Positions 2,646-58,890 of a stretch of 64,000 bases of DNA are shown piece by piece. Each line of letters begins with the position of its first letter. The first letter of the stretch is position 1. The notes under the pieces are model-generated. The model was not told the origin of the DNA, made no database searches, and saw only the letters and a program-made list of their open reading frames with translations. A program made the position numbers and the translations under genes. Location of the stretch: NCBI RefSeq assembly GCF_036971445.1, contig NC_091474.1, positions 28,892,001-28,956,000 of the forward strand. Direction: 5' to 3'. The stretch is from Narcine bancroftii (taxonomy: Eukaryota).

Positions 2646-2782
2646 CATACCTTGATGAAGGACTCAAACCCGAAACGTTGTTATCTTTGGTACATAAAGA
2701 ACACTGTTTGACCTGCTGAGTTTCTCCAGCATCGTGGTTTTTGCTCCAGCCACCTTGTCTGCAGACTTTTGTGTTTTTCTTC
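2646..2782 (+). mobile_element. Penelope-like pseudo-LTR with minimal hammerhead ribozyme motif
   Basis: CATACC-TTGATGA-AGGACTCAAACCC-GAAACGTT-GTTAT followed by the family tail TTTGACCTGCTGAGTTTCTCCAGCAT...TCTGCAGACTTT. The same repeat recurs about 11 times in the window. Confidence 0.7.
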
Positions 2783-2921
2783 ACAATACTCTAAATCAGT
2801 CATTTTTAATGGGGGTCCTATAGACCCCTGGGGTGTGGGGGGGGGTGGTCACAGCACATTGAAGTAAAAACCTTGTTTTCACCTCAAGGAACATAAATAT
2901 TTATAATGTAGTCAGTAAGAG

Positions 2922-3628
2922 GATTTTTCAGTTGGTTGTTTTTCCAGACTCTTTTGTGTAGTCTTCCAAAGGCGCTATTTGCCTTGGCGAGTCTATACAG
3001 AGCCGTTATCATACCCACACTCCTGTTCGGCTCCGAATCATGGGTCCTCTTCCGGCATCACCTACGGCTCCTAGAACGCTTCCACCAGCGTTGTCTCCGC
3101 TCCATCCTCAACATTCATTGGAGCGACTTCATCCCTAACATCGAAGTACTCGAGATGGCAGAGGCCGACAGCATCGAATCCACGCTGTTGAAGATCCAAC
3201 TGCGCTGGATCCACGTCTCCAGAATGGAGGACCATCGCCTTCCCAAGATCGTGTTATATGGCGAGCTCTCCACTGGCCATCGTGTCAGAGGTGCACCAAA
3301 GAAGAGGTACAAGGACTGCCTAAAGAAATCTCTTGGTGCCTGCCACATTGACCACCGCCTGTGGGCTGATATCGACTCAAACCGCGCATCTTGGCGCCTC
3401 ACAGTTCGGTGGGCAGCAACCTCCTTTGAAGAAGGCCGCAGAGCCCACCTCACTGACAAAAGACAAAGGAGGAAAAACCCAACACCCAACCCCAACCAAC
3501 AAATTTTCCCCTGCAACCGTGTCTCCCTGTCCCGCATCGGACTTGTCAGCCACAAACGAGCCTGCAGCTGACGTGGACATTTACCCCTCCATAAATCTTC
3601 GTCCGCGAAGCCAAGCCAAAGAAAGAAA
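2922..3628 (+). mobile_element. 5'-truncated RTE-clade LINE with 5' inversion
   Basis: RT C-terminal ORF (YRAVIIPTLLFGSESW...SRIGLVSHKRACS), GAAA tail, inverted segment at about 2922-2994, and TSD AGTC(A/G)GTAAGAG at 2910-2921 and 3629-3640. Confidence 0.92.
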
Positions 3629-4409
3629 AGTCGGTAAGAGAGAAGTACAGAAAAATGTGAATACTTCACAGGGAAGGGTACCCAAAACTGAACAGAGTCC
3701 TGGGGGGGGGGGGGGGGGAGGAGTCAAAATAAGGCTGAGAATACCTCACACTTTACTGAGTTAAATTCCATATGCCATTCCTTGGTCCCTCATTCCCATT
3801 TCTATCCTTTTGAAATATTATGACTCTTTATCCTGTCTGTGGCCTTCATAGTTTTAAGAAGCACTGAGACCACCCTCAAACTCATTATTCCCAACCTTCA
3901 TCCATGCTGTCAAAGAACAGAGCAGACCATGATCCTTATCACGAACATGAAGGCAGAGTGATGCAGCAGGTAATGCTGACTTTCCTATTCCCTGTGACCA
4001 CTTGGGATTCCCCTTGGTACTTCAGTTCCCTCCCACATCCCGAATATGTTAGGGTCAGTGGGTTAATTGTCTCTGTGAATCCCCCATAGTGTGCATAGGT
4101 GAGGGGTAGCAACCAGATCCACATGCTCCCAGCTGCCTGTTATCAAAGCTTCCTGAACCTGCACCTCTCCATCTCCCCCTCCTCTACAAGTGAACCTTTA
4201 AAAGCTCCCACGGTGACCAGATTTTGTCATCTGTCTATTCTCACAAGTGAAAGGAGTCAGAAAGTGGGGAACAACAGGCCAGTGAGCCTGTCATGAGATA
4301 AACATTAAAGACTTTATAGCAGTGGACTCAGAAAAATTCAAGGCAGTCTAACAATGTTATATACTTCAATATAAGAGAAAAATCCTCTCTTTGCAAAGTC
4401 ACAGTGATA

Positions 4410-4860
4410 TCAAGTTCATGTTTATATCATCCAATTGTACAAGTACAGCCAAATAAAACACGTTTTTCAGTCCTCAGTGCAAAAACATGCAAACACACGT
4501 ACAGACTTAACACATATACAAACAATACATTTGCAGTACATATATATAAATCAAATAAATTTTGTTAAATGAATAGTATTGTCTCAGAGGATTCATCAGT
4601 CATTCACTGCCCGTAAGAAGAAACTGTTCCTCAGCCTAATGGTGCTGGCTCTGATACTCCTGTATCTCATCCCCAACAGGAACAGCTGAAGGTTGCTGTG
4701 TGTGGGGTGGAAAAGGTCGTCAATGATTTTGCGCACCCTCTTCAGACGACTGTCCCGATAGATCACATTGCTGGGGGGGAGGGAGACTCCAGTGATCTTC
4801 TCTGCCACTCTTACGGTCCTGTGGATTGATCTCTGAGCGCTGCAGCAACCATACCAGAGA
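4410..4860 (-). mobile_element. Rex1/Babar-like LINE 3' fragment
   Basis: Degenerate peptide KIIDDLFHPTHSNLQL...RYRSIRASTIRLRNSFF; homologous to the copy at 59245-59730. Confidence 0.65.
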
Positions 4861-6290: not shown

Positions 6291-6370
6291 TGGTTATGGA
6301 TAGGTCAAGTAAGGAGATAAACATAACAAAATGGAGCATAATGTGGAAAATGTGAAATTGTACACTTTAG

Positions 6371-8281: not shown

Positions 8282-8297
8282 AAATTGTACACTTTAG

Positions 8298-10380: not shown

Positions 10381-10519
10381 ATATTTTTGAAAGTGAGACC
10401 ATTTTCTTTCACTTTCTCTTTTATCGGGATTCCAGTTTTTTAAAATTCTCCCAGATACCTTCTTTGTCCTGCTTTGATTACAATTACTGATTCCTGTCTT
10501 CCTGTCATGGGGCCTCCGT

Positions 10520-13820: not shown

Positions 13821-13825
13821 TCCAG

Positions 13826-14060
13826 GCTGGAGAAACTCAGCAGATCAAACTGTGTACTTTAGATATCAAAGATAAGGATACATTATCAATTTTCAGGCCT
13901 GAGCCCTTCATCAAGGTATGAGCAAACTGTTATATAGCAAAGATAAAGATACATAACCAACATTTCAGGCTTGCGCTGTTCATTAAAGAACACTGTTTGA
14001 CCTGCTGAGCTTTTCCAGCATTGTGTTTTTACTTCAGCCATGGTGTTTGCAAATTTCAGA
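13826..14060. mobile_element. Cluster of Penelope-like pseudo-LTRs (two minus, one plus partial) with hammerhead motifs
   Basis: Minus strand 13920-13880 reads CATACC-TTGATGA-AGGGCTCAGGCCT-GAAAATT-GATAATG; a second, degenerate copy lies at 13929-13985, followed by an inverted partial tail. Confidence 0.7.
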
Positions 14061-14504
14061 GCTTCACTTGAATCTGGTGGGCTTGTGATTTCACCCTCGT
14101 GAATCTTCATCCTGAAGAGAGAGGTTGAAGAAAGTCTGGCCGGGGTGAGATGAGTCTTAAGTCATGTTGGGTGGTTTCTGTGGCAGCGGGAAGTGTAGAC
14201 AGTGTCGATGAAGGACAAGGGGGTTGGTCTGATGGACTGAGGACACAGGTTTACTTTAATTAGTAAAAGGTATGAAGGAGAGTTGAGGACAATGAGATGT
14301 GATCTGTAGGTCTCTGGTCGAGAGCTGGGAGGTCCACTTATGACCAGCATGCACACGATAGGCTAAGGTTCTGTGGCTCCACGTAGAAAATGGGAAGGTG
14401 AAGGTCATATTCCTGGCACTCAGGAATATGGCTAAACCTGAAACAACAGACATCAGGAATTAGGTTTCACAATTGAGTGGAGAAAGGATGACCAAATCAC
14501 AGTA

Positions 14505-16790
14505 CAGAACACAATGCTGGAGAAACTCAGCAGGTCAAACAGTGTCCTTTATCTTTCTTTGGCTTGGCTTCGCGGACGAAGATTTATGGAGGGGGTAAAA
14601 AAGTCCACGTCAGCTGCAGGCTCGTTTGTGGCTGACCAGTCCGATGCGGGACAGGCAGACACGATTGCAGCGGTTGCAAGGGAAAATTGGTTGGTTGGGG
14701 TTGGGTGTTGGGTTTTTCCTCCTTTGCCTTTTGTCAGTGAGGTGGGCTCTGCGGTCTTCTTCAAAGGAGGCTGCTGCCCGCCAAACTGTGAGGAGCCAAG
14801 ATGCACGGTTTGAGGCGTTATCAGCCCACTGGCGGTGGTCAATGTGGCAGGCACCAAGAGATTTCTTTAGGCAGTCCTTGTACCTTTTCTTTGGTGCACC
14901 TCTGTCACGGTGGCCAGTGGAGAGCTCGCCATATAATACGATCTTGGGAAGGCGATGGTCCTCCATTCTGGAGACGTGACCCATCCAGCGCAGCTGGATC
15001 TTCAGCAGCGTGGACTCGATGCTGTCGACCTCTGCCATCTCGAGTACCTCGACGTTAGGGGTGTGAGCGCTCCAATGGATGTTGAGGATGGAGCGGAGAC
15101 AACGCTGGTGGAAGCGTTCTAGGAGCCGTAGGTGGTGCCGGTAGAGGACCCATGATTCGGAGCCGAACAGGAGTGTGGGTATGACAACGGCTCTGTATAC
15201 GCTTATCTTTGTGAGGTTTTTCAGTTGGTTGTTTTTCCAGACTCTTTTGTGTAGTCTTCCAAAGGAGCTATTTGCCTTGGCGAGTCTGTTGTCTATCTCA
15301 TTGTCGATCCTTGCATCTGATGAAATGGTGCAGCCGAGATAGGTAAACTGGTTGACCGTTTTGAGTTTTGTGTGCCCGATGGAGATGTGGGGGGGCTGGT
15401 AGTCATGGTGGGGAGCTGGCTGATGGAGGACCTCAGTTTTCTTCAGGCTGACTTCCAGGCCAAACATTTTGGCAGTTTCCGCAAAGCAGGACGTCAAGCG
15501 CTGAAGAGCTGGCTCTGAATGGGCAACTAAAGCGGCATCATCTGCAAAGAGTAGTTCACGGACAAGTTTCTCTTGTGTCTTGGTGTGAGCTTGCAGGCGC
15601 CTCAGATTGAAGAGACTGCCATCCGTGCGGTACCGGATGTAAACAGCGTCTTCATTGTTGGGGTCTTTCATGGCTTGGTTCAGCATCATGCTGAAGAAGA
15701 TTGAAAAGAGGGTTGGTGCGAGAACACAGCCTTGCTTCACGCCATTGTTAATGGAGAAGGGTTCAGAGAGCTCATTGCTGTATCTGACCCGACCTTGTTG
15801 GTTTTCGTGCAGTTGGATAATCATGTTGAGGAACTTTGGGGGACATCCGATGCGCTCTAGTATTTGCCAAAGCCCTTTCCTGCTCACGGTGTCGAAGGCT
15901 TTGGTGAGGTCAACAAAGGTGATGTAGAGTCCTTTGTTTTGTTCTCTGCACTTTTCTTGGAGCTGTCTGAGGGCAAAGACCATGTCAGTGGTTCCTCTGT
16001 TTGCGCGAAAGCCGCACTGTGATTCTGGGAGAATATTCTCAGCGACACTAGGTATTATTCTATTTAGTAGAATCCTAGCGAAGATTTTGCCTGCAATGGA
16101 GAGCAACGTGATTCCCCTGTAGTTTGAGCAGTCTGATTTCTCGCCTTTGTTTTTGTACAGGGTGATGATGGTGGCATCACGAAGATCCTGACAGTGTCCT
16201 TTATATAGCAAAGATAAAGATACATAACCATTGTTCCGGGCTTGGGCCCTTCATCTAGATATGGAAATATATCAGAAGGAGTCCAAACAAAAAGATAAGG
16301 GGGAAGATGAGGGGGAGAGGAACATGGTCACAAAGGCAGGAGGTATTAGATGGAGAAGGGAGGCAGGGCACAGCAGTAAGCAAGGAGAGAAGGGATGGCT
16401 GGGTGTATAGAGAGGGAAGGGGGTGGAGAGCTGAGGGAAAGAAAACAGAGGGAAAGGAAGGGAGGGTGAAAGGGAAAGCAGGTTAGCAGAAACCAGAGAA
16501 GTCGATGTTAATGCCATCCAGCTGGAGTGTGCCTTCCCTCCCTTATTCACATATTACCTCCTACCTTTGGGACCGTGCTCCTCCCCCTGCCCCTCCCTTC
16601 CTCCCCACCAGTTTGTTCGGACGTCTGCTGACATTTTTCTATATCTTGATAAAGGGATCAAGCCTGAAACATTGTTTATGTATCTTTATCTTTGCTATGT
16701 CAAGTACGCGGTTTGACCTGCTGAGTTTCTCCAGCCTTATGTTTTTACTTCAACCACGGTGTCCGCTGACTTGCGTGTTTTACTGCACTG
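14505..16790 (-). mobile_element. Penelope-like element 3' end with inverted pseudo-LTR (interrupted by RTE)
   Basis: Minus 16527-16483 encodes LQLDGINIDFSGFC*, a PLE GIY-YIG ORF C-terminus motif (L.P.G.N), followed by a pyrimidine-rich UTR and a hammerhead-bearing pLTR (16264 to 14505). An opposite-orientation UTR/pLTR occupies about 16530-16790. Confidence 0.75.
14553..16190 (-). mobile_element. 5'-truncated RTE-clade LINE with uninterrupted RT ORF (about 525 aa)
   Basis: ORF 14610-16211 contains NYRGITLLS, QCGFR, FVDLTKAFDTV, GVKQGCVLAP, FADD and terminal CNRC...H...C; 14-bp TSD ACAGTGTCCTTTAT at 14539-14552 and 16191-16204. Confidence 0.97.
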
Positions 16791-17117
16791 TACAGAGCAA
16801 CAGGAATGAACGAGGCACCGAGTAATGGAGCTCATAGAAATGGTGGAGAAACACAGCAGGTATGGAAAGAAAAGGCAGTTGATGTTTCGGGCCTGCATCC
16901 TTCGTCAGGAGTGTCGAAAATCAGGCAGGAGCTGGGATAGAAAAGTGGGGAGGGGGGAGGTGGATGGGGTGGAGAGGGAAGGTGGAAGAGCACAAGCAAA
17001 CAGCTGAGAGGTTATAGGTCGACATGTAGGAGGCTAGAAGAGAAAGAAAATTATAAGAGATCAGGAGGCACAGTGGTCTCAGAAAAAAATCACCGAGAAT
17101 ATGGTGTGAAACAGAAA

Positions 17118-17272
17118 TGGTGCAGAAACTCAGCTAGTCTTGCAGCGTCTATAGGAGGTAAAGTTAAGTTACCTTGAAGAAGGCCTCAGGCCTGAAACAT
17201 CAGTTATATATCTCCTATGGACGCTGCGAGACCAGCTTGAGTTACTCCAGCATTTACCATGTTTTTACCTAG
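17118..17272. mobile_element. Head-to-head pair of second-subfamily Penelope-like pLTRs with hammerhead motif
   Basis: TACC-TTGAAGA-AGGCC-TCA-GGCCT-GAAACATC at about 17170-17201; flanking arms TCTTGCAGCGTCTATAGGAG and CTCCTATGGACGCTGCGAGA are inverted repeats. Confidence 0.65.
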
Positions 17273-17590
17273 TACATGGTGTTGGATAAAATTAAACTGA
17301 GAAGATAGATCAGCTAGGACAGATGGAGAAGCACTACGGGGAATAGTTTCCCCAAGAACAATAACCATCTGTCGGATGGATGGAGGGTTGTGAGACAGGT
17401 TCACCAGCTCCACTCCCGGAGCGGCAGACATGTTGCAGGAGGGCAGGTGAAGTTGTCAATGTGGACAGAGGGTAGAGGTGATTGCATTGAAACATTGACG
17501 GGTTGTGGCAGGTGGTCTCATGCTAATACTTGCTTGTCCACATTGACAAAGCTAGTCCTATGTCTGTTTTCAACTCGTATCCCTCTAAAC

Positions 17591-25465: not shown

Positions 25466-27279
25466 ACAAAGGAGTTTTGGGGCTGGGGAGTGTTGTGGTG
25501 CAATGTTGAGGAAGTGCCTCTCGGGGTGGGAGGGTGGAGGGTTTGGTGGCCATGGTGCTGAGGGAGCGCTGCAAAGAAAATCACTGTTGAAATGAATGAC
25601 AGAGTCACTCCCTCCAGGTGGAAGGAACAGTAACTCTCCCCTGCAAACACTGCCTACTGACAGGCTGTGGGAGTTTTCATTTCTTCTGAGGTAGAAGACC
25701 ATTCAGCTCATCTCGTCTCTGCCATCTCTCAGAGCAATCCCATTCTCCCATATTTCCCTGCAACCTTGCTGTCAGGCAGCTGGGAATGCTCTGTGAGGAC
25801 GTATTCTGGTGGGGTGGCTGGGCCGGCTTGCCTACTGTCTGATGTACGTGGAACATCTCCCTGGTTCTTCGCGTTCTTGGCTGAATTCCTGCTGGAAGAA
25901 AGCTCTGAAGTAATTTGATTGAATACTAATAAAGGGAAGGAAATAACTGCTCTGCTCTCACATTGTAAGAATTGCTGAATTAACTCAGGAATTTAATGTA
26001 ATGCATCATGCTTAATTCAGATAAATTAAATTCACGATAAACAATCTTTGAGATTAGAATCAGCAAATAAGGTATTAATCAAAAAGAAATCAGCCTTAAC
26101 AAGGGATGCATTAACCAATTCTAAAGTAGGCAGTGGGCAGATGCTGGATCAGAGGGCTCTGACTGGGAGATCAGGGAACAAACAAAATAGGAGAATTCAA
26201 CTTCGATGGAGACAAGAGTTTTGGTGGCACATTCACCTGAGGACTGCTGTGGATGTGGGGTAGGATAGAAGAAAGGTTAACCATCTGCTTCCGCCCTGCA
26301 AGGGAGGATGGCTGTGAAATTTGAAATGCTGGAGGAACTCAGCCGGTCTCCTCAGCTTCCATAGGAGGTAAAGATATATAACCAACGTTTCGGGCATGAG
26401 AAGCAACTGGTGAAACTTTCATTCCCCTACATTAAATGTAATAGATTTGCTGTAATTGTTTATTTCCATATTCCCTCCCCGACCCTTCCAACCATGGGTC
26501 TGATAACTTTTACATGAGAAAGTGGGCAAAGATTAAAAGAGACAAGAAATACATTTTAAATAAATATTCACAGGTATGTTATGTAGGACTAGATGTTAAT
26601 ATCCCTTATTGCATTCCTGAGACGCCACCTGGACTCTGGCAACTAAGTGGTGGCTTCTTGTGGGTTATCAAGTGGGCCCCCTCCTTCCTTAGTGTTTTGC
26701 TGACAGACCCATGACACTTTTTAGTGCATAAAAAGTGACCTCCAATAGCGCAGGCAATCCCTTTGTGGTGTGGGAGCAGTCCCTGATCAGTGTAGCAATG
26801 GGAGAGTCAAGAGTCTGATTGTTGTTGAAAGAAACTGTTCTTGAACCGAGAGGTGCCAGTCTTCAGGCTTCTGTACCTTCCACCCGAAGGGAGAGTGAGA
26901 AGAGGTACTTGTGACCAGGGTGATGGGGGTCCTTTGTGATGATGTTTAATTAGGCATTTCATTATCACTGATCTTCTTTAGTCTGACGGTCTTTTTGTTG
27001 CCCAGAATGTGAAGGCTGTGTGCCGGATGAAGGTGGGGCAATGAGCAAGTGTTAATCATTCAGGATGCATGGAAAATCCCATGGCCTCTTGGAAGTGTTT
27101 GAAGTCAAATGGAAAAGATAATTGTGCGGAGTGCAAGAAGGCTGTCGGTTTGCCATCCTATACTGTATACTCCCACCTGACAAGGATTCCACATTGAACA
27201 CGTCCTCCCCAGCGACTTCACACTTTCGATCTTTGACACTTCAGTCAGGTCGAAAATATTTTTGCCTGAGGTGAAGTGG

Positions 27280-27943: not shown

Positions 27944-27984
<41 letters not shown>

Positions 27985-37849: not shown

Positions 37850-40800
37850 TCTCCATTCAGATCCTGTGCACGATGACCTCTGACAGGTAGCCTATGTGCC
37901 CAGGTGAGAGCCACGTGGCTCTTGACGCTGTATTGAATATATTACCAGTGGTGATGATTGTACGCAAGCCAACCTTGGTTTTGGCTGCGAATTTGGGAGT
38001 TGTATCTTCCCGTTCCTGCACACAACCCTTGCACTTTGATCTCCTTTGAACATGCGCCCTCTGATAGCACGTTGCATAGAGCACATTAGTTACCTGTCCC
38101 CTGGTGAATGTTAACCCTGGAGGCTTTAGATTAAGGAAGGAGGATGGGGAGAATGATAATCTTGCCATGCCTCCTCCCTCTAATGCACTCTTCAGAAAAT
38201 TTAATATTACATAATTTTATTATAAATTACATTTTAAAATTTAAATAGTTTTATGTTTCTTAATACCTGAAGATAATTTAGTGTAGCAATAGAAACTGCA
38301 CTGTGACTGTTACTAGGAATGAGGGTGTCCCTTTCGGCACTGTATCGAATCACAAAACAGCAGCTATGGAGTGTAGAACTGTGGATTTGACAACCTGGAG
38401 GTAAACACTTAATCGCAGTTTGCACTTTTAATGTTTCCTGTGGTCCAATTTCGCATCTTAAAAGGGTATTGTTGTTTATGTAACTGCAGAATAAATCATT
38501 TCTTGGCATCACCTCATCTGAACCTCGTGGCTTTTTCCACCTAGGAGTGGCTGTTCCCAGAGGTTAAGCAGTTCTGCTGTCCATCGTGGATCCTCTCCTG
38601 TGAACACTACTATCCAATGGCCACATTACATCGGGAAGGTTGCAGTACGAGCGAAGAAATGATCAAGAACTGCAGTAACTAAACACTGAGCACATTAAAT
38701 AAATCCCTGCAATATTTATGGTCATCTCATTATCATCTGGCTTTGTGAAGGATGAAGGTTGACACAAAAGGAATCTTTGTCCCGCACATTTCCCCTAAAC
38801 CTCCTCCCCTCACCTTAAATGTCCTCTTGTGTGTGACATTTCTATCCATGGGATCTGGTGATTATAATCTCCATGGACTGTAATCATCAATACTCTGGAT
38901 ACTGGTGTTCATGTTTGGCTCAAGCCTCATTTCTTCTTATCTGAACCCTTGACCAACCCCATTCCCTACTCTGTCATCTATATGTCCAGCAAACACATCA
39001 TGCACATTCTGCAAAGAGTGGTCCATACCCCCACTGCTCTCAGAGTAAAGAGGTTTCTCCTGAATTCTCTGTTGGATTTCTTGCCAACTCTCTTGTATTG
39101 ATGGCTTCTGGTTCTGCTCCCTCCCACCCAGTGGAAACCTTGTATTATTTGACGGACATACATTTGGTCCTCCATGCCCCTCAAAAGAAGGCAGATCCAC
39201 TTCCTGTCTTGATACATCCACTGTTGCATTCCTGGTCATATCCTTGTCAACCTTCCCTGCAGCCTCCTACTGCCTCTTTTTTATCAAATCCTGACTGAAA
39301 CCAGGTGTCATACCAGGTGTATCTGCTAGGTTTGATGCAAGTCCTCAGTTCTCCCAGGTTTGCCTTTAGTGGTCTTGCCAATTTGTTTGACATTTTGAAG
39401 TTGGGATTTTGACTCCCCTGGTGACTTTGTTGCTCTCCCCACTCGACCTTGCTCTTTCAAAGTGATACTCTATCTACTAAAATGGGCGGCCATTTAAAAC
39501 AGAGATGCAGAGAAATTTCTTTAGCTAGAGAGTGGTGAACCTCTACAATTTGCTGCCATGGACAGCTGTGGAGGCCAGGTCATTGAGTGTATTTAAGGCA
39601 GAGATTAAGAGGTATTGGAATAGTTGGGGTATCAAAGGTTATGAGGAGAAGGCAGGGGAGTGGGAGAATGAATCAACTCATGACGGAGTGGCAGGAGTGT
39701 CTCGAAGTGTTGAATGGCCAATTTCTTATGGTCTGGTGTCCAACCTACGTTTCTCAGAGAAACTGAGAAGCTGCAAAATGCTGGAATTTTGAGTAGACAA
39801 AGAATTGCTAGAGGAACTCAACAGGTCAGACAGCATCCGCTGGTGGAAATGAAGTCCACGCTTCGTGGTGGAACCTTCACCAAGACAAAAATTAAAAAGT
39901 AAAATAACATGTAGAAAGGGGGAAGGAAGCTGGGGGAAGGGGGTCCAGAGGTGAGGGGACAAAAGGTTTTGTTTTCTTCCTAAGTCTGAAAGATGTGCGG
40001 GTCAGTGGTCAATTGTCGGCTGTACATTCACCCTGGTGTGTAGGGGTGGGTTATTTTGGTGGGAATAGCACAGGTACTAGGGACATGATGCTCAGAGGGG
40101 CCATGTTTCTGTCCTCAGTGACTTGTTGGTGGACTGGAATGAACTGCCAGGGAGGACATTGAAGACAAACACTCATAGCATTCAGATGGGAGCTGGACAA
40201 GTATCTGAAAGAAAGGAATCGCCAGGGAGAATGTTGGATTGTTGTTGCACAGAGCTGGTGCACACTCGACAGGCTGAATGGCCCTCAATGCTGTAGCTGT
40301 TCTATGAAGCAAGAAAGGAAGTTAGGAATAGAAAAGAGAAACTGGGAAGCTAATGGGAAGTTGACTAGTATACATAAACCCTTACAGTTAAACACTCTAC
40401 TAAAGATAGACTGCTTTCGTTGTTAGGTTGTTAGGATTACTTTCTCTTAATGATTGATTACTAATTTGTCAAACATGATGTAACTGACCACACAGTGAAT
40501 GTAATTGCCATTTGTTCTCTCTGTTACCTGATGTGACAGATTTGGAAATGTCACCACCCAATTTTCTATCCCCAGTAATTCTGTTGAACAGAAGAGACAA
40601 GAGCTGAAAACATGAACCTCCAGGTTCAGGGACCGTTCCTTTCCCGTTGTTATCAGACTCAAAATGGACCTCTCATTGGTAAATCCTGTCAATCTTCTAC
40701 AGGACAAATTCCTAGGTGTCAACATCACTGAGGAACAGTACTTTGGCCTCCATATCAATGCAATCACGAAGAAAGCTCGCCAAGGACCGGAGAACGGTTT

Positions 40801-41437
40801 CATCAGGTTGCACTGCACAATTGGATGATAATGAACTTGAATTTGAACTTAAAAGATTATGCCCTTGCTCTTTTGAAGGTACTTATTTCTTTACCCTGCA
40901 CTTTTTTGGAGTGTAAAATTATACCCAGAACATACCCTGTATGAGTTGACCTGCCTGGATAGTGTTCAGAACAAAACTTTGGACTGTATATTGGTACATG
41001 ACAACAATTCAGTTCAACGACTACCCGTGAGAGGTTGATGGGTGTGTCGTCACTGCTGCACACCTGGAAGGAGCAGTGAGGAGACCCTTCAGCCACTGGA
41101 ACCTGCTTTCCCTACTGACCAAGATCATGGCTGATGTGGACTTGGCTTCAACCCATATTCCTGCTTGTTCTCCAGCACCTTCAACATCAGTCTAGTCTAA
41201 ACATCTCCCAGTCAAACATGTTTAGTGACTCCATCTCTGCCATCCTCTCAGTAGAGAACCTTCCATGAGAAGAAATTCCTCCTCATTTCCATCTTAAATG
41301 GTGACCTCCGCAGTTTAAACTCACTCCACCAGTGAAAACGTCAGGTCCAAGTAAAACAGAAAATCTGCAAACACTGTGGTTGAAGTAAAGACATTTTTCC
41401 ATACTTTGATGAAGGGTTCAAGCCCAAAACGTCAGTG

Positions 41438-44314
41438 TGTAGCATTCTTCTCATCAGACTTCTGGTCCCGAGCGAGCTGGTCGAAGTCAAGGCCGGGCGT
41501 CAGCGTGCAGATGGCCGGTCGCTAGAGTGCATTTGCAACCACATTGTCCTTCCCCGCCTTGTGCCGAATGTCGGTGGTAAACTCCAACACGAAGGAGAGG
41601 TGACGCTGCTGGCAGGACGACCAGGGATGTTTTGCCATCGCGAGCGCCTGGGTGAGGGGTTTGTGGTCAGTGAAGATGGTAAAAGTCCTCCCCACCAAAA
41701 AATAGCGGAAATGTCTAACTGCCAGGTACATGCCCAGTAAATCAAAGGCACTATACTTGCGTTCTGGCGGGTGGAACAGGCAGCTGAAGAATGGCAGCAG
41801 CTTCCAATGTCCATTCACCTGCTACTCCAGGATGGCACCGATGGTCATGGCAGAGAAATCGACAGAGAGTGCCATATGCAGGTCGCTGTGCGAGTGGGCG
41901 AGCATGGTGGCCTTCATGAGGGCGTCCTTGGTGGCCTTGAATGCGGTCCAGGCTTCTGGGTTCCAAGTGAGCATTTTGTGCTTGGCTGTGATGAGGGTGA
42001 CCAGCAGCTGCATGATACATGCAGCTCCCGGGATGAAGCGGTTGTAAAAGTTGACCATACCCGCGAACTCCTGCAGCCCCTTGAGGCTGTCCAGGCGTGG
42101 GAACTCCCTGATAGCGGCGACCTTCGCAGTGGCAGGCATGGCTCCTTCAGCCGTGATGGTATGGCCCAGGAACTGCATGGACTCTTTCCTGAACTGGCAC
42201 TTGTCCGGATTGATGGTAAGGCTGAAATTGGCCAGCCGGGAGAAAAGGGCGCGTAGGTGTGCCTTGTGTTGCACCTGGTCCATGCTCGCGATGAGGATGT
42301 CATCCAAATAAATAAAGATGAAATCCAAGTCCCTGCCCACAGAGTCCATGAGACGCTGGAAGGTCTGAGCGGCATTCTTGGGCCCGAATGGCATGCGTAG
42401 GAATTCGAACAAGCCAAAGGGGGTGATGATGGCCGTCTTGGGTATGTCCTCAGGGTGCACTGAGATCTGGTGATATCCGTGCACCAGGTCAACCTTGGAG
42501 AAAACCCTCGCAACATGCAGGTTGGCCATAAAGTCTTGGATATGAGGGATGGGGTAATGGTCAGGAACTGTTGTCTCATTGAGCTGTCGATAGTCTCCAC
42601 AGGGATGCAAGCCACCGGAGCCTTTCAGGACCAGGTTGAGGAACGAGGCCCATGGGCTGTCGGACTGCCAAATGATCCCCAGTTCCAACAGGTGAGAAAA
42701 CTCCTCTTCAACACCAGGAGCTTGTCAAGCGGGATCTGGCATGCCTTGGCGTGAACCGGTGGGCCCTGGGTGGGGATGTGGTGAAACATCCCATGGTGCG
42801 GCGAGGCAGCGGAGAACTGTGGCTTGAGGAGTGTCGGGAACTCATCCAGGATTCGCTGGAACTCGTCTCTGGGCATGCTGATCATGGCCATCTGCAGTTG
42901 CTCTGAGCGGGAGGGGTCAAGGCAAATGTCCTGGAAGGTACAGGCATCCATCAGGTGCCTACCTCGAATGTCCACCAGAAGCCCGTGTACGAGGAGTAAG
43001 TCTGCACCCAGGATGGCATTCGGGAGGGATGAGACGGTGAACTTCCATGCAAACTTTCGTTGGCCAATCTGGAAGTGGACTGTCTTGTCTCCGTACATCT
43101 AGATTACAGTTGCGTTGCCCACACAGAGGGGAGGTCCACGAGGTAGGTTCCTGGACTCAACGGCTGTGGCCGGGATGACACTGATCTGGGCTCCAGTGTC
43201 AACAAGGAACTGCCGGCCGCTGACTGAGTCCTGCAGGTAGAGGAGGCTGTGTCCTTGGCCAGCCGCCACAGCCATTAACAGCGGCCAGCCTGGTCGTTTT
43301 CCTGGAATGAGCAGGGCTGATGACACTTCCAAGCCTTGGCTCCCCAGCACTGGTGGTAGAAGCAAAGGCCTGGAGCGGATGCTGTGGCCTTGGTTATGCT
43401 CTTGGGGGCCCCTGCAGGGGCCCAATGCTCTACCGCAGCACTAGGGGCGGGCTTGGCATGGTCGCGCTCATGCCTCGTGACCTGCTGGACCACTGAGCCT
43501 TCTGAGAATCGTGCGAGCCATAGCTCTTGGACCTTCTGGATGACCTTCCTCGGGTCGGTGAAACTCTCCTGGACCAGCAGCGGCCGGATGTCCCCAGGCA
43601 TATGGTCGAGGAAAATACGCTTGAAGAGTGGGCAGTTGGTGTGCTCACCCATGAGCATGAGCATCTCATCCATCAGCTCCATCAGGGACCTGTTCCCCAG
43701 GGCATCGAGGTGCAGCATCCGAGCGGCACGCTGGTCTTTGGATAGTCCGAGGGATCCAGTAAGCACTCGCTTGATGGTCTCATATTTGTCTTCGGCGGGT
43801 GGGTGCTGAATGAGGTGCAGCACATGTCTGGTGGTGGCCTGGTCCAGGGCAGCGACCACATGGTAGAATGTGGTCGTGTCGGACGAAATCTGGCGGAGGT
43901 GAAACTGAGCCTTTACGTGGCTGAACCAGGTCTCCGGCAGTTTCACAGCTATACTGCTGATCCCAGACTCGCTCATGATGGGTTCAAAGACATTTGAACC
44001 AGTCGGGGTCACCAATTGTAGCGGCAGCTACACTGCTCCTGACAGAACACACAGAACCAGATGGGTTGAGCTTAGTGAGGAGACTAGTTTATTGCAGGCT
44101 GCTGGGCTGTACTTATACTCCCAGCCCGGACCTGGTTGAGAACCGCACTGGAGGGCGCTGACATCACCCAGGAGTCATGTGGTCCCCCACCGCGGGCTTA
44201 TGAGCCCCGTGCTGGGAGGAAGGGATCACCCCCGATGGCGCCATTTTGGCCAGCTGCCCCGCCATGTGGCTTACAAGCAGGGCCGGTTTGCCTGCCTAGT
44301 GGTGAGCCAGCACA
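41438..44314 (-). mobile_element. CsRn1-clade Gypsy LTR retrotransposon, internally deleted (no integrase, 3' LTR reduced to about 6 nt)
   Basis: 5' LTR at 44017-44314 (TG...CA); tRNA-Trp-type PBS TGGTGACCCCGAC; gag with CHCC knuckle (CFYH...C...C); protease FLVDTGA; RT (GDYRQLN, YLDD); RNase H (TDHKPL); 4-bp TSD AGTG at 41434-41437 and 44315-44318. Confidence 0.9.
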
Positions 44315-46699
44315 AGTGTGTATTTTTATCTTTGCTTTATAATATTGACCTGCTATGTTTCTCCAACATTTTGTTTCTCCTTCAAACATCAGCTCCATCT
44401 GATCCTCAAGTTCTCAGATGTTTCAGGAGTATCAGGACGATCACTTCAAATGAGTACTGACCCAACCAGTTCAATTAGTCCTAATTAGACAACCCCAATG
44501 GTCCAGGAATCAACCTCTCTCTGATGACCTTCCTACAGCAGGAACAGTTGTGATCCATAAGTTCTCCTGTTGCCATCTTACTAGTGGCTGGTACAATTTA
44601 TAATGCTATTATGTACACCATACTCTCCCTTCTCTAACAACCACATAACTTCTTGGGCACACCCTTAGAATCAAGAACAACTTGGCCCCTCTCACCTTTT
44701 GTGTGTGCTGCAGCTCCATCTGCCGCATGCACAGAGCTTCTGTGAGCCCCCAGTCCGTGGTCTGGGAGGTCAATACCATCCCAATAGATGTTTCTCCACC
44801 TTGAATGTTCATGGAAGGGACCACTGAGAGTTGGCACATATACATGCTGAGAGGGCAAATCCAATCTGGGTAATCCCCACCCAGTCAGCCTGCTAACGTT
44901 CATCAGCAAATGATGGAAGGTAGCACTGATGATGCTAGCGAGTGGCCGTCACTCCTCAGCTTGGGCTTCACAAACCTAGACCAAGGAGCTGAAGTCCCCA
45001 GGTGAGGAGAGGTTGATTGCCCTTGATGTCGGGGCACTGTTTCTATCTGATCATAAGACATTTGAGCAGAAACAGGCCATTCATCCCATCGAGATTGCCC
45101 GCCATTTCCTCGTGAGCTGGTCCATTTTCCACTCAGCCCCACTGCCCGCCCTTTTCCCCATAATTTTTGATGGCCCCGCTATTCAAGAACCTATCAATCT
45201 CTGCCTAAAATACACCCAATGACTTGCCCTACACAACCACCTGTGGCAAACAAAAATCCTCTTCTAAGCAGATGCCCTTTGATCCTGAAGTTGTGCCCTC
45301 TTGTTCCAAACTCTCCCACCATGGGAAACATCCTTTCTTCATCTATTCTGTCCATGCCTTTCAACATTGAAACAATGATTACAAGCCAAGAGCCATCAAA
45401 CATTTCTCATATGATAACCCATTCATTCCCTGGGAAATCTTCCCTATTGGCTCTGATGTAACGACCCAATGGGCATCAAAGGAAACCTTCCAATGGTTAG
45501 AGCTGGACCTCCCCCAGAGGAAGAGCTGTCCAGTGGTCCATGGTTATTCTTGACTGGGTGTGATGGGGCTGTGGAGGGAAGATAGTTTTGGCTGTGATTC
45601 CAGGAGTTCCTCCATCCTACCATATTCTGCTGCTTCAAAGTTCCTTTGTCAGAAAAGGGGAAGTTCACTGATAGTTGCACAGACTTCAATTATATTCATA
45701 ACTCCTTTGTAAATGGAGCAGCCCACAGCTGCACCCAGACACTATGCAAGTACAGGGCATGAGGCAATTAGTGACCATCTCCAATTCAAGCAAGTCTCAC
45801 CACTAACCTTGGCTGTACAGTGGCTTTACCATCTCCAAAGTACCAACCGTGCTGAGAGTCACCATTCACTAGAATGCAACTGAATTGGCCACATAAATAC
45901 TGTGGCAGCAAGAGCCCAGAAGAGGCTGTGTGTCCTATGGCACAAGGTAGGAGTGAGGTGGAACACTCTCCACTTCTCTGGATGAGAACGGCTGTAGCAA
46001 CTCAACCCCATCCAGGACAGGATGGGGCTTTCCATTTTCTCACTGTGCCCAATGGCATGGAGTGACTGTGCCGGATTCCTACCCCTCTTCTCCACTGTGC
46101 CTGACAGCACACGGCGACAGTGTCGGATTCCCACCCCTCTCAATCCCAAGACGGAGCAGCTCCAAGATTAGCAGGAAGCCACCAGGAATGTGATTGGCCT
46201 GTTATATTGCAACAGACCAATCATCGACCCTCACCTTTGCCTGTGAGATTACACACCATGGATTTAAGGACAGTTTCTTTCCCACTGACTTCGGATTCTT
46301 GAACAAATCTCCCACTGATAAAATAGTGTTGCCTTTGTAACTGATGTCTCCGTAACTCTGTGCATCTACAATGTGTCTTACCTGCTGTCCTACATATAGG
46401 ATATCTAATTGGCCAGCTCATAAAACAACTTCTTTCACTGCATCTTGGCACATTCCACAATAGACCTGAACTAAATCTAACATTAGCAATCTTATATTAA
46501 TTTTAAATTTATAAATATTTATTAACCATTTTTAATTTAATGTATAGTATATGATTGTAGTTTTTCACAAAATCTCTGTTTGGCTGCAGCAAGTGGGAAT
46601 ATTAGTGCAATTGTACATTGTACTTGTGAATATGACAATAAACTAGTTATCGTTTGGAGTCACTGACAATAAATTTGATTTTCCTGTTAAGATGCTGGA

Positions 46700-51600: not shown

Positions 51601-53112
51601 TGCACTACATAAGGTGACACAGGAAGTCCAGACCAACAACACAATTCATCAAGTATATACAAGCAAAATTTACAGAACTCCCACCCACCCCCCTCCCCCG
51701 ACAGGTATACTAAGCAATGTTGTTGAACACTCATAGAGTGTGAATGAGATGCGAGAAATATGCAATAATTAGAAGGATACATCTTTAGGTTGAATTTTTG
51801 TACAGTCCATGAGTCTATGAAGCTTTCAGTACAGCCTGCATTGATTAGGCATTTAGTGGAATGTCCATTTCCCTTCACAGTCACTATGGAGTTGCTGAGC
51901 TGGTGAGGTCTATCCTGTCTAGGACCATCGAGGCTAGGTCCCCAGAGACTCCATAATCCTTACTCACTCGTGTGGCCCCCACCATCCTGAGTTGCCCTGC
52001 ATGGGTATGATGGTGTCAACCATGTGGCACGGCAAGATGGCTGCCCTCCTTCCTCCTCTGACGATGATGGCGCAAAGTTTGAATTTGGGTCACTTCATGC
52101 CATTTCCTCATTGCCACCCTCCATCGGCATGTTGGGCAGCAAGTAGGTTCGGGTGAATTTGGGGCAGATGGCTTGGAGCTGGAATCAGATCCAGAAGTGT
52201 TGCAGGCTGCGGACTTCCCCAGGCTTCCCCTTGCATGACAAACCCTGACTCAATGTCCTTTTTTGCTACAGCTGGAACACACTGAGTCTTTTGCCAGGCA
52301 ACGAGATTGGAGATTCTGCCTCTTGCCGCAGAAAAAGCACTCCCTGGCATGGAAGCAGCAGGGATAGCGAGAACAGCCGGTCCTTGGAAGGGGTCACCTG
52401 GGTGAGCAAGGTCGCTGGCTTCAAGGTCATCATTCTCGAGCTTGGCTAGTTCCAGTGATTTGACCAGCTTGATGTGGCTAGCCAGTCCTTCTTTCCCGAC
52501 TCGAGCAGTCGCTGCCTCATGTACCTCGAGCGGACCCCCACGACTAGAGTGTCCCAGATCTGTTCTTCCTCACGAATGTGGCCCGTAACCACTTCATATC
52601 TGCACTTCTTAGGAAGCATCCACAGATCCAACAGATAATCATCGATGGTCTCTCCTGGCCGCTGGTGATGTAGAGCAAGTCAGGGTGGCAGCGTCATATG
52701 TAGAGCAGTCCCTGATGACTGCACACCCTTTTGTTCCTTCCCTCGAAGCGAGTGCAGACCTCCTGAGTTCATTGGTATGGAAGAAGTCTCTGCTCACGTT
52801 CAGGTAGACCTGGAAGCAGTCTAGCCAATATGTGAACTCCTCAGCTGCATCGGGGGGGGGGACAGAGCATACCTGGCTTGAGTAGCACTTCCATCATGAG
52901 GGAATAAGCTAATAAAATTGTAGTGTGAGTAAAAGCTCTCATGACTGGAGGGAGAACAAATGCTTTTATTAGCATATAACTAAGGGTAGGGTCTCACAGT
53001 AGTCTTCAGAAGGGTTCTGGGTTTTGGTGGGAAACCAGGTTTATAAGTGAGCAGATGGGGGTGGGGCCGGCCATCAGCACAAAGCCCTACCAGTGAATCC
53101 CAGTTCATTGCA
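48685..53112 (-). mobile_element. Full-length degenerate Gypsy LTR retrotransposon with non-tRNA PBS
   Basis: LTRs at 48685-48891 and 52919-53112; 5-bp TSD AAAGC (48680-48684, 53113-53117); PPT AGGAAGGGGTGAA next to the 3' LTR; RT (YLRVPFGITNG), RNase H (RPVAFFSRTL, VEKEA) and integrase (H...CHPG, SVDFKGPLPS, HSDWG, YNPQGNGQVEK). Confidence 0.92.
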
Positions 53113-54340: not shown

Positions 54341-55018
54341 AGTGAGCAAGAGCAGGGGGTTGGGGAGAGATATTAGGTCAATTGGGTGTATTCAGACACC
54401 ACAGGCCAAAAGGGCCTGTTACCGTGCTGCATGTCTAAATTTAAAATTTAATTTAGAGAAGAGGGTAAGGAATGAGAGCAAGGGGTAGGGAAAGAGAACA
54501 GTGGGGTAGAGTGAGTGAGTGTGGAGTTTGGTCAGGTTGAAAACAGGATGTGGGGATGAGTTAGGGTGAACTGGCCAGTCAGTCACCCTTGCAGCATGTT
54601 AGAGGCCTGTAAGCAAAGACCTGATCGTCCTTAGTTGCACCAGCAGACTTGGCTCGGTGTTGCTGGTGTTGCCAGAGCAGAGTGGGAATATTGGGTCGTG
54701 CTGCCTCCTTAACCCAGTGTAGAGGGGGATTTCCGAGAGATTGCAGATCAACTAACAAATACAGGAAGCTGAACAGACATCATGATTGTGCATGCCATGA
54801 AAGCTATTTCAATTCGTTAGAAAGCATAATTAATACTATTATGCTCTTAAATAATATTCCAAAACATTTCAGATGGTCTGCTATAAGATGAGAACTGTGT
54901 TTGTGTTAACTGTTTAAAGGTTTGTGTTATATTGCCAGAATGTTTCACTGACCCAACAACAGTTCAGTTTCACACTTGTTGCTCTAAAGTAAACACAGTG
55001 CAGGAGAAGGTTGTGAGT

Positions 55019-55165
55019 TTGATGAAGGGCTCCTCCATCAATGTCTGAAACATTGGTTATGTATCTATCTTTGCCTTATAAAGGACACTGTTTGACCTGC
55101 TGACTTTTGCCAGCATTGTGTTTTTACTTCAAACGTGGTGTCTGCAGACATTTGTGTTTTACTTT
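55019..55165 (+). mobile_element. Penelope-like pseudo-LTR with hammerhead motif (expanded stem II region)
   Basis: TTGATGA-AGGGCTCCTCCATCAATGTCT-GAAACATT-GGTTATG followed by the family tail. Confidence 0.7.
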
Positions 55166-56119
55166 TGAAAAGAGGGAGCAGCAATAATGGGGGAAGTACT
55201 GGAATCTTTAATAAAAGATGCAATAACAGAACACTTGGAACTAAATCATGGGACTGAGCAGTCAACACAGACTTGTTCAAGATTCCTTTATTGCCATGTA
55301 ATAGTACAGAACGTATAATATTACATTACATTCCCTTTTGCCTGCCGTAAGGCAGACAAAGAGATATATCAGTGTCATTCAGCGCCGCTTGCAGTAAGAG
55401 AGAAAGAGAACCAAGGGAGTCCCTTCAGAGATGCTGAGAGTCTGTGGATTTGCCTCCAGTGCTCCCCCAAGTGTTGGATCTTCTTGAAAACATTAAGAAC
55501 GTTCACCGGGGCCGAATATGATATACCCCAGGTTTCTGAGGGAAGTGAGAGAAGCGATAGCTGGAGCAGTAGCTATGATCTGTGGGTCCTCTTTGGCCAC
55601 AGGGGAGATCCCAGAGGAATGGAGAATGGCCAATGTGGTCCCCTTGTTTAAAAAAGGTAATAGGGAGAATCCTGGGAATTATAGACTAGTGAGGCTTCTA
55701 TCAGTAGTGTGCAAACTTGTGGAGAGAATTCTTAACAATAGGATCTATAAGCATTTGGAGCAGTACAGTCTACACAAGGATAGTCAAGGCTAAAAGGCCC
55801 GTGCTGTGCTGCAGATTTCAGATTTATTGTCAAAGTACATATATGACATCATATACAACTCTGAGATTAGTTTTTCCTGCGGGCACGACAGAATTACCTC
55901 TAATTGGTAGTGAAAAAAAAACTGTACACAGCGTAAACATGTGACCAATCAAAAGAATTATGAACAGATAATGAATGTAAACAACTGACTGTGCAATACT
56001 GAGAGAGCAAAGAGCAAATAAAAATCAATAAGGTGCACAAGTAAGAGTCCTTAAATGAGTGTCTGTAGATTACAGGTGCAAAATTGCAATAAATTACATT
56101 TCCGTAGATGCAAAATTTT

Positions 56120-56515
56120 AAAATAAACAGTGCATAAGAAAGGAGAACGAGTGAGATAGTGTCTATGGGTTCATTGTCTGTTCAGAAATCTGATGGCGGA
56201 AGGAAAGTTGCTGTTTTTTGTACCATTGGGTGTTCATCTTCAGGCTTCTGTACCTCCTTCTTGATGGTAACAGAGTAAAGAAGACACGGCTTGGGTGGTG
56301 AAGGTCTCTTGTAGATGTCCTCGATGGATGAAGGCTGATGCCCATGATGGTGCTGGCCAAGTTCACAATCTCTGAAGCCTTTTCCTGTCCTGTGCATTGG
56401 CATCTCCATACTAGACAATGATACAACCAATCAGAATGCTGTCCTGTAGAAATTTGCAAGTGTCTTTGGTGATGTACCAAATCTCCTTAAACCGCTGGTG
56501 AGCCTTCTTCATTGT
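56120..56515 (-). mobile_element. Rex1/Babar-like LINE 3' fragment
   Basis: Homologous to 10520-11075 (HHPSRVFFTLLPSRRRYRSLKMNTQWYK). Confidence 0.75.
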
Positions 56516-57030
56516 GGTCCATGAACAATGTTTCAATAGGAATATTGTTGGGGAGGAAATTGGTAAGCATTGTGTGCACATCATGCTCCCAGAAGCCGCA
56601 ATTTGGCAACCCAGAGGATGGGGGTGGGGGTAAATGTGGGATCCAGGAGGGTACAAAGATGGCAACTGGAATTCAGTGCAGGGACAAGAGGCGAGGAGCA
56701 AATAGGGCAAGGTAAATGGGAGGAGTGGTGTTGGCGTGGTGGTCCACCGATCCCTGAACACTACCCGTAGCTGAGAATGGACTTTTCTCAGATAACTAAA
56801 GAGCAGGGAGTTGGGGCTCAAACTGAGCAAATTGAGGGGCAGAAGGGGCTGTGCTAAGAAAGATCAAATAGCCTGTGGCTATTACATCTGGAACAAAAGG
56901 TTTAATGGGAAATTGGAAAAAGGGAGGTAACCATACTTCTGGCAATTTCTGCTGATGGTGAATTCATGTAATATTACACTGTTTTTATTACATGACAGTA
57001 AAGATATCTTGAATCTTAAACCACACGGTC

Positions 57031-58504
57031 CTCCCAGAATTACAGTGTGGCTTTGCGCAAACAGAGGAACTACTGACATGGTCTTTGCCCTCAGACAGCT
57101 CCAAGAAAAGTGCAGCAAACAAAACAAAGGACTCTACATCACCTTTGTTGACCTCACCAAAGCCTTCGACACCGTGAGCAGGAAAGGGCTTTGGCAAATA
57201 CTAGAGTGCCCCAGATGCCCCCCCAAGTTCCTCAACATGGTTATCCAACTGCACGAAAACCAATAAGGTCGGGTCAGATACAACAATGAGCTCTCCGAAC
57301 CCTTCTCCATTGACAACGGCGTGAAGCAAGGCTGCGTCCTCGCACCAACCCTCTTTATTATCTTCTTCAGCATGATGCTGAAACAAGCCATGAAAGACCT
57401 CAATAACGAAGATGCTGTTTACATCCGGTACCGCACGGATGGCAGTCTCTTCAATCTGAGGCGCCTGCAAGCTCACACCAAGACACAAGAGCAACTTGTC
57501 CGTGAACTACTCTTTGCAGATGATGCCACTTTAGTTCCCCATTCAGAGCCAGCTCTCCAGCGCATAACGTCCTGTTTTGCGGAAACTGCAAAATGTTTTG
57601 TTTTGGAAGTCAGCCTGAAGAAAACTGAGGTCCTCCATCAGTCAGCTCCCCACCATGACCACCAGCCCCCCCCACATCTCCATCGGGCACACTGAACTCA
57701 AAATGGTCAACCAGTTTACCTACCTCGGCTGCACCATTTCATCTGATGCAAAGATCGACAACGAGTTAGACAACAGACTCGCCAAGGTAAATAGCGCCTT
57801 TGGAAGACTACACAAAAGAGTCTGGAAAAACAACCACCTGAAGAAACACACAAAGATCAACGAGTACAGAGCCGTTGTCATATCCACGCTCCTGTTCGGC
57901 TCCGAATCATGGGTCCTCTACCGGCATCACCTACGGCTCCTAGAATGCTTCCATCAGCGCTGTCTCCGCACCATCCTCAACATTGAATGACTTCATCACC
58001 AACATCAAAGTACTCGAGCTGGCAGAGTCCGCAAGCATTGAATCCACGCTGCTGAAGACCCAACTGCGCTGGGTGGGTCACGTTTCTAGAATGGAGGACC
58101 ATCGCCTTCCCAAGATCGTGTTATATGGCGAGCTCTCCACTGGGCTCCGAGACAGAGGTGCACCAAAGAAGAGGTACAAGGACAGTTTAAAGAAATCTCT
58201 TGGTGTCTGCCACATTGACCACCGCCAGTGGGCTGATCTCGCCTCCAACCGTGCATCTTGGCGCCTCACAGTTCGGCAGGCAGCAACCTCCTTTGAAGAA
58301 GACCGCAGAGCCCACCTCACTGACAAAAGACAAAGGAGGAAAAACCCAACACCCAACCCCAACCAATTTTCCCTTGCAACCGTACCTGCCTGTCCCGCAT
58401 TGGACTTGTCAGTCACCAACGAGCCTGCAGCAGACGTGAACATACCCCTCCATAAATCTTCGTCTGCGAAGCCAAGCCAAAGAGAAAGAGAGAAGAGAAG
58501 AAAG
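57031..58504 (+). mobile_element. 5'-truncated RTE LINE with 55-bp target-site duplication
   Basis: Frameshifted RT peptides (FVDLTKAFDTV, KQGCVLAP, FADD); GA-rich tail; identical 55-bp flanks at 56976-57030 and 58505-58559. Confidence 0.95.
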
Positions 58505-58754
58505 ACACTGTTTTTATTACATGACAGTAAAGATATCTTGAATCTTAAACCACACGGTCTAGATTTATAACAGATAAAAGAGGAGTTCATTCTTTGTTGG
58601 AAGGAGCAGAAGAGAGACAAACTCTCCCCCAGTCAAACGGAATTTGGTTGGATCATAACCTGTAGGGTTACTGACTGGGATCTCTGGAGAAACCCCAGGC
58701 ATGCTGGAAACACACAGCATATCAGACATATGGAGAAGGTGACGGAGTTAACGT

Positions 58755-58890
58755 GGTGAAACACGAAAGTCTGCAGACTCCATGATTGCAGTAAAAACAC
58801 AAATGCTGGAGGAGCTCAGCAGGTCTCACGGCATCCATTGGAGGTAAAGATACGATGTTTCAGGCCTGAGCCCTTTTCCAGGGTATGAGT
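58755..58890 (-). mobile_element. Penelope-like pseudo-LTR, degenerate hammerhead motif
   Basis: Reverse complement reads CATACC-CTGGAAA-AGGGCTCAGGCCT-GAAACATC, then ...GACCTGCTGAGCTCCTCCAGCA...TCTGCAGACTTTCGTGTTT. Confidence 0.65.

Follow-up and report, generated by a model that had tools for sequence, protein, structure and literature searches.

The repeats dispersed through the window (the whole stretch of 64,000 nt analysed) are very probably decayed remnants, truncated at the 5' side, of the 3' end of an autonomous RT/CX4CxxC/GIY-YIG Penelope-like element (PLE), likely a Neptune and likely extinct, whose pLTR carries a known minimal type-I hammerhead. The position of the hammerhead behind an RT/linker/GIY-YIG open reading frame (ORF), the 5' truncation, the inverted partners and the optional 3' tail all point to stumps of an autonomous PLE and not to a separate retrozyme. 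The hammerhead is already known from PLEs and its core letter has a published precedent; what is gained here is a further large fossil family for a class that was described in 2014, which as found matters little.

Copies in the window

The initial annotation listed about 11 copies of one family, and all 11 places carry that family (Table 1), 10 of them covering the hammerhead; near 26400 (minus strand) there is just the 3' part, and the copy near 13985 (minus strand) is cut inside the core. A profile built from nine window copies gave 16 matches in the window and none in the reversed window, used as a control; a second profile was built from 10 window copies aligned across the hammerhead region. 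The consensus previously drawn by eye is the majority sequence of subfamily A, and the copy near 16910, described as having a canonical C3 core, is a member of the C3 subfamily G1. Comparison with Rfam, proposed as a check, returned no hammerhead match at E<=5 in the window, which means only that the Rfam models miss the minimal form.

None of the four window copies submitted to a scripted test has a fully intact motif, and the alignment read by eye shows the remaining six to be broken, the lesions being G8A, G12A, A13G, a change of ACGT to ACAT, mispairing in stem II and a deletion of 11 nt. Judged from their sequence, the window copies look like decayed 5'-truncated 3' ends, none of which appears able to cut. 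A simple search for target-site duplications in seven window units gave no convincing case, the single 10-mer match being internal repeat sequence.

Table 1. Members and fragments of the family along the window.
Position	Strand	Feature	Remarks
2642..2780	+	5'-truncated pLTR stump, subfamily A	U3 core at 2652; tail present
13824..13928	-	pLTR stump	U3 core at 13914; palindrome no longer intact
13929..13983	-	second hammerhead fragment, partial tandem	cut within core
13984..14053	+	inverted pLTR 3' end	head-to-head with 13824-13983 unit
14502..14554	-	remainder of 3' end of 16257 copy	split off by LINE insertion, 14-bp duplication
16189..16533	-	PLE 3' fragment	last ~14 ORF codons (~16488-16533), 3' UTR, hammerhead at 16257, core broken
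16528..16790	+	inverted partner	part of 3' UTR, hammerhead at 16646 (G8A, ACAT), tail
16829..16939	-	C3 subfamily G1 copy	core at 16908; palindrome and stem II decayed
17091..17283	+	subfamily E-like stump	U3 core at 17174; preceded by an inverted 3' end (17091-17168)
26323..26400	-	3' part only	runs from 3' strand of stem II onward
39802..39885	-	old, strongly diverged copy	absent from the initial annotation
41390..41446	+	stump	U3 core at 41406, G12A, 3' part gone
44315..44388	+	3' end fragment without hammerhead	
55018..55170	+	stump beginning at U3 (55019)	loop 2 has 8-nt insertion; tail
58755..58913	-	copy with tail	broken core at 58883

The parent element

Outside the window, 27 of 30 loci selected by RT have a hammerhead downstream of the RT match, and PLE protein homology occurs at most 700 bp upstream of 70 of 194 other copies, in all eight clusters. 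Every subfamily thus includes copies with the end of an RT/GIY-YIG ORF directly upstream, and what lies scattered through the genome are stumps truncated at the 5' side; the idea of a mostly non-autonomous, retrozyme-like system is not supported. The Penelope-type pLTR with a type-I minimal hammerhead is borne out. A majority sequence built from 29 loci can be read in a single frame containing RT motifs, CX4CxxC and GIY-YIG with CCHH. A DKG motif is found upstream of the RT core (also in loci L076 and L077), and the element has a long Pro-rich N-terminal stretch. Homologs, the best of which come from Hypanus and Rhincodon, bear PF00078, PF01541 and PF26215; Pfam matches to individual decayed fragments scanned directly are weak (RVT_1, E=0.003, in one of eight fragments). 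Between RT and EN lies a CX2-5CxxC linker, a feature common to Neptune and Nematis according to Craig et al. (2021; PMC8557442), and the domain order is that of an EN+ PLE, likely of the Neptune clade.

All of 20 long loci are apparently truncated and have neither a 5' pLTR nor a full-length copy, so a tandem transcript is something that we infer. A 4.1-kb same-strand pair considered as a full-length element with two pLTRs turned out to be two insertions. No open frame longer than 550 aa was found among the best 150 of 33,948 RT candidates, a survey that young copies could escape.

Ends of the copies

The 3' ends are bimodal, with 11 of 39 at +101 to +108 and 25 of 39 at +138 to +160; 36 of 39 thus fall into two clusters about 36 nt apart, which amounts to an optional tail of 36 nt. 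This fits the 30-40-bp tail described for PLEs (PMC8557442; Frangieh et al., 2024, PMC11167929) and supports the PLE reading. An inverted partner adjoins 19 of 45 copies. The 5' ends pile up at the 5' edge of the hammerhead: among 45 unselected A/B-type copies, 16 start no more than 20 nt before U3, which is 16 of the 36 copies at risk, compared with 0.063 per bin in other places (p=1e-10, with some rows being two arms of one insertion). These clustered ends are not sharp and spread over about 30 nt. Cleavage yielding copies that begin at the cut site was considered and rejected, there being no excess in the cut-site bin (3 of 44 at risk).

Such a pile-up would also be expected if a share of the short copies came from a short master of their own, non-coding and resembling a SINE or a retrozyme, that started just before stem I and was moved by the PLE protein. 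Retrozymes do derive from pLTRs (Li et al., bioRxiv 10.64898/2026.07.22.740005), and at an unrelated locus there is one tandem array of 14 units of 47-nt C3 hammerheads. Nevertheless, we regard this reading as quite unlikely: the ends are too spread, short and ORF-bearing copies share the same subfamilies, and among the first 100 U3 matches listed there is one same-strand pair within 5 kb, which consists of two separate insertions.

The hammerhead and its core

U at position 3 is the true state of the family, as had been proposed, with 1449 exact genome matches to the 26-nt U3 motif and none for the reversed control; C3 accounts for the other 100 of the 1549 exact matches. In place of the C3-G8 pair of the PLE consensus, the masters of five subfamilies have U3·G8, and subfamily G1 has C3; the remaining core columns agree with that consensus. 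Decay of a CpG as the source of U3 was discarded, since position 3 is outside any CpG and C3 makes up just 100 of the exact matches. The 30 C3 loci inspected comprise copies of C3 subfamilies together with members of U3 subfamilies in which a sporadic change or the loss of 1 nt has occurred. One subfamily, with a single 3' tail, includes a form with C3 alongside another with U3 that is longer by one base (13 C and 13 T of 30), and for this reason U3 may stem from a 1-nt insertion with re-pairing.

Among the six masters, none of the 15 core columns (G5, G8 and G12 included) and none of the six stem II columns vary, against 57 of 93 flank columns, which we take as a sign of selection on the masters, although the invariance of the core is partly circular because the search profile includes it; H17 is C or U. 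Four masters retain six Watson-Crick pairs in stem I, so that changes between subfamilies keep pairing there. The covariation anticipated in the initial annotation is therefore found between subfamilies for stem I and is not found for stem II, whose supposed paired variation at 17181 is one-sided decay (C11.1 to T at a CpG plus one G to C), like other changes in the window. All masters have an extra nucleotide after A9, the G10.1-C11.1 pair, a palindromic 15.2-16.2 and a stem I that closes. Helix III is, as previously stated, unable to close within one molecule, where ACGU would leave a 2-nt loop. Nearest-neighbour energies give -18.7 kcal/mol for the active dimer against 2 x -9.6 kcal/mol for the monomers, that is, no gain, and the lowest-energy dimer has a different fold; these calculated values neither show nor exclude dimer cleavage by the U3·G8 variant. 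A literature search on C3U or U3-G8 rates found no kinetic value.

After the change from C3 to U the motif may instead have lost cutting and been kept as an RNA-RNA pairing site or as a boundary of the RT template. This possibility, which we consider doubtful, would account for the fixation of U3 across five subfamilies whose stem I covaries, and for copy ends that gather at the 5' edge of the motif when so few begin in the cut-site bin; the Anolis element, moreover, inserts in vitro without needing hammerhead cleavage (PMC11167929). The 15 core columns other than position 3, all unchanged across masters, are, however, a better fit to continued catalysis than to pairing alone, and uncut RNA should give rise to copies whether or not the motif cuts. 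A more specific version, rather improbable in our view, is that the U3·G8 hammerhead founded five large subfamilies with a compensated stem I and was selected for pairing two element RNAs and marking the cDNA end or template switch, its cutting having been slowed or lost. If this were true, the head-to-head insertions that join at the hammerhead would preserve in the genome the trace of that RNA dimer.

Under the reading that we favour, stumps of an autonomous PLE, the element protein would have nicked AT-rich DNA and reverse transcription would have started from either of two sites located about 105 and 141 nt 3' of U3. cDNA synthesis would have passed through the uncut hammerhead and often halted or switched template at its 5' edge, leaving stumps of 120-170 nt, many with an inverted partner. 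The hammerhead of active masters would have been a slow cutter that required a pair of copies and probably the aid of protein, and selection would have preserved its fold although position 3 had become U (the U3·G8 wobble). The genomic copies now decay in the manner of dead repeats.

Comparison with known elements

Minimal hammerheads with an extra A, a palindromic stem III and a dimer model were published for metazoan PLE pLTRs by Cervera and De la Pena (2014; PMC4209133), and that paper describes the same type-I architecture, with an extra nucleotide after A9, G10.1-C11.1 and a palindromic 15.2-16.2 (C,G), and the same mostly solo dispersed copies, with opposite-strand pairs 100-700 bp apart. 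The core is not novel: the supplementary alignment includes a PLE-associated entry, Saccoglossus kowalevskii(1), with U3 and G8, and Schistosoma cores with U3-A8. Cartilaginous fish are absent from the portion of the alignment compared; relative to its entries, stem II is shorter here than in most (4 bp) and stem I has 6 bp and one bulge, and U3·G8 here dominates some 1e5 copies over five subfamilies.

The element resembles the Neptune EN+ PLEs described in PMC8557442 in having RT followed by a C-terminal GIY-YIG with CCHH, the CX2-5CxxC linker and DKG, and in its 5' truncation, inverted 5' partner, 30-40-bp tail and hammerhead near the 3' end. It differs in that no intact or full-length copy was seen here and in the long Pro-rich N-terminal stretch; its likely placement in Neptune is by domains. 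In the Poseidon element PAc of Anolis (PMC11167929), as proposed here, two RT start sites give the tail and uncut RNA serves as insertion template, and the hammerhead is protein-assisted and C3-G8 dependent; PAc, however, is active, its C3 is the canonical one, and its clade lacks the linker. The non-LTR retrozymes, reported in one chondrichthyan (bioRxiv 10.64898/2026.07.22.740005), likewise have a type-I hammerhead of pLTR origin, but they are non-coding tandem repeats with a hammerhead per unit, whereas the copies here are dispersed, ORF-linked truncations of a coding element. The function of the PLE hammerhead is called unclear in PMC8557442; a U3·G8 core kept through several amplification waves, with insertions ending at the 5' edge of the motif, is a natural variant that bears on which of the two, cutting or folding, has been under selection.

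Abundance, decay and the copy near KCNQ2

The genome holds roughly 1e5 copies with a median divergence of about 20%. Essential CpG sites of the core are changed in 157 of 377 cases (42%), as in fossils; the palindrome is kept in 33 of 142 copies, and the whole motif is intact in 10 of 142. Non-CpG core and stem II sites are changed less than downstream sites (142/1667 versus 614/4978, p=1.5e-5), which we read as detection bias plus subfamily mixing, because loop 2 is equally low (25/375), though weak selection may contribute. The family is likely extinct and present activity is unlikely.

The density of about one copy per 6 kb given in the initial annotation is correct locally and does not extend to the genome, a random sample having yielded 12 copies in 370 kb. 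A plus-strand copy (2642..2780) does lie upstream, 370 bp from an ATG at 2272, on the minus strand, of a KCNQ2-like gene, so named from the likeness of its N-terminal sequence. That this copy, or some others, were co-opted as host regulators is hardly credible. What favours it is this proximity and the roughly 5-fold richness of the window in copies over the random sample (p=6e-5), but stem II of this copy is mismatched at two positions, 11 nt are deleted from the 3' strand of its stem I, and it is on the strand opposite to the gene. No significance of its nearness is supported; with about 1e5 copies such proximity is expected, and the blocks flanking the window are rich too (7 in 100 kb).

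The repeat family and its parent element

All 11 coordinates assigned by the initial annotation to a single dispersed family do contain its sequence, and a profile built from nine window copies gave 16 matches in the window and none in the reversed window. The hammerhead region is covered in 10 window copies; none of the four submitted to a scripted test was intact, and the remaining six were judged broken by eye. An Rfam scan of the window did not detect a hammerhead, and tblastn of the window for the PLE ORF gave no match. The family is a fossil in its host genome. Window features and two sets of genomic loci are listed in the table.

Features of the window and of related loci
Position	Feature	Details
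~16488-16533	PLE ORF	last codons only
14555-16188	RT-encoding LINE, presumably RTE-like	546-aa frame, RVT_1 E=5e-36; within pLTR 3' part; 14-bp duplication
68-1905	28-bp GC-rich unit x63	99% identity; start of KCNQ2-like intron 1
near 68 and 141	two partial repeats	KCNQ2-like exon-1 end
41751-44027 and 49811-51959, minus strand	LTR-retrotransposon-like coding fragments, presumably Gypsy-type	broken
L353:1877-2546 (G000:C27:71745377-71746046)	~14 tandem 47-nt units	every unit is a minimal hammerhead with a C3 core and a weak stem I
G000:C8:241245812, 241343659, 241441512	three equal-scoring matches	~97.85 kb apart

Similar LINE sequence also interrupts the genomic loci L106 and L116, at most ~10 nt from the same pLTR spot, which may mean that these LINEs prefer an A-rich target.

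The family belongs to a Penelope-like element and its hammerhead is linked to the PLE ORF. In genomic relatives the motif is preceded by a pyrimidine-rich UTR and the ORF end. An RT-fragment search of the genome gave 33,948 first-look candidates, the longest open frame among the 150 matches listed being 550 aa, and 27 of the 30 RT-selected loci have the hammerhead downstream of RT in the same direction. The majority sequence of 29 of these loci (L089 left out) is a single frame encoding RT, a CX4CxxC linker and GIY-YIG with CCHH; the element also has a DKG motif, and its closest proteins are from Hypanus and Rhincodon, which makes a cartilaginous fish the likely host. This type of linker is a mark of Neptune or Nematis (PMC8557442, in part), and would place the element in one of these clades. 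PLE protein homology was present within 700 bp upstream in 70 of 194 copies that were not RT-selected, and in every one of 8 clusters. None of 20 long loci yielded a 5' pLTR. The initial proposal of a retrozyme-like system is not supported: retrozymes are tandem and non-coding (bioRxiv 10.64898/2026.07.22.740005, in part), and this family does not match.

The hammerhead core and its fold

U at core position 3, as first noticed, is the master state of the family (1449 exact genomic matches with U3 versus 100 with C3), and by eye C3 occurs in 0 of 26 readable hammerheads of RT-selected loci. When 237 copies were clustered using only columns outside the hammerhead, U3 characterized subfamilies A, B, C, E and G2-U3, and C3 the G1/G2 group (18/24). 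At position 17, subfamilies C and E have C and G2 has U; A is mixed, with some of its U due to CpG decay.

The covariation initially proposed for stem II was not supported; it is stem I that compensates. Each of four master variants of stem I (CATACC/GGTTATG, CACACC/GGTGATG, TATACC/GGTAATA and TATTCC/GGCAATA) forms six Watson-Crick pairs with one bulge, with a joint chance of 9e-5 in a naive model (9e-3 counting G·U) that rests on an assumed path between masters; the G1 and G2-U3 masters formed only four stem I pairs in the pairing test. Across the six masters 0/15 core, 0/6 stem II and 57/93 flank columns vary, in a partly circular comparison. From the pairing kept in stem I, together with the invariance of core and stem II, we conclude that selection maintained the fold while the masters were active, U3 notwithstanding. 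Stem III is the palindrome ACGU, which cannot close a hairpin, and helix III therefore needs a partner copy, as initially proposed. Folding energies give the active dimer no advantage; in A and B, core and palindrome pair with each other in the monomer's lowest-energy fold. The hammerhead would depend on both dimer and protein.

The architecture matches in every point that of the PLE minimal hammerheads in Cervera and De la Pena 2014 (PMC4209133, in part), which have the extra nucleotide and the palindrome, occur as solo copies and in opposite-strand pairs, and show low activity as dimers. A PLE-associated Saccoglossus motif in that paper's supplementary alignment (extracted PDF text) shares the U3 and G8 core, as does a saltern phage variant cited in PMC7151607 (in part), and a U3-A8 core occurs naturally (PMC3088659, in part).

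In loci L271-L300 one subfamily tail occurs both with a C3 core and with a U3 core that is longer by one base, possibly a record of U3 origin. The L353 array, flanked by one inverted and one direct pLTR end, looks like a miniature retrozyme array or the product of repeated template jumps at the hammerhead; its units have decayed independently of one another.

Copy ends, abundance and decay

The 3' ends of the copies are bimodal, at +101..108 (11/39) and +138..160 (25/39) from U3, which is the PLE tail, and the 5' ends show inversions (inverted partner in 19/45). The 5' start falls in the 20 nt preceding U3 in 16 of 45 A/B-type copies, a cluster that may mark the 5' end of an RNA, the start of a short master or a place where the template was switched at a folded dimer. 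Only 3 of 44 at-risk copies start in the cut-site bin, from which we infer a mechanism where inserted cDNA derives from uncut RNA; the Anolis element likewise inserts from uncut hammerhead RNA, as seen in vitro (PMC11167929, in part). About 30 nt upstream of U3, most subfamilies (e.g. loci L134-L140) have a T-rich run ending in CAG/CGG, similar to a 3' splice site; the Drosophila Penelope intron terminates at helix I (PMC4209133, in part).

A sample of 37 spaced 10-kb stretches (370 kb) held 12 copies that cover the hammerhead, from which we estimate ~108,000 (56,000-189,000) for the 3.33-Gb host genome; the window is ~5-fold denser in copies than this sample. The copies are decayed: RT-selected ones diverge by a median of 20% from their own majority sequence, core CpG sites (C11.1, G12, C15.2, G16.2) are altered in 157/377 cells, G12 is A in 48/142 copies, and 10/142 passed the intactness test. 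The element is probably extinct. Outside CpG, the core and stem II are less changed than the sequence downstream (8.5% of sites versus 12.3%, p=1.5e-5), which speaks against purely neutral decay, but loop 2 is as little changed (6.7%), and for this reason we tentatively attribute the difference to a bias in detection and the mixing of subfamilies. The three matches on G000:C8 suggest a large tandem segmental repeat.
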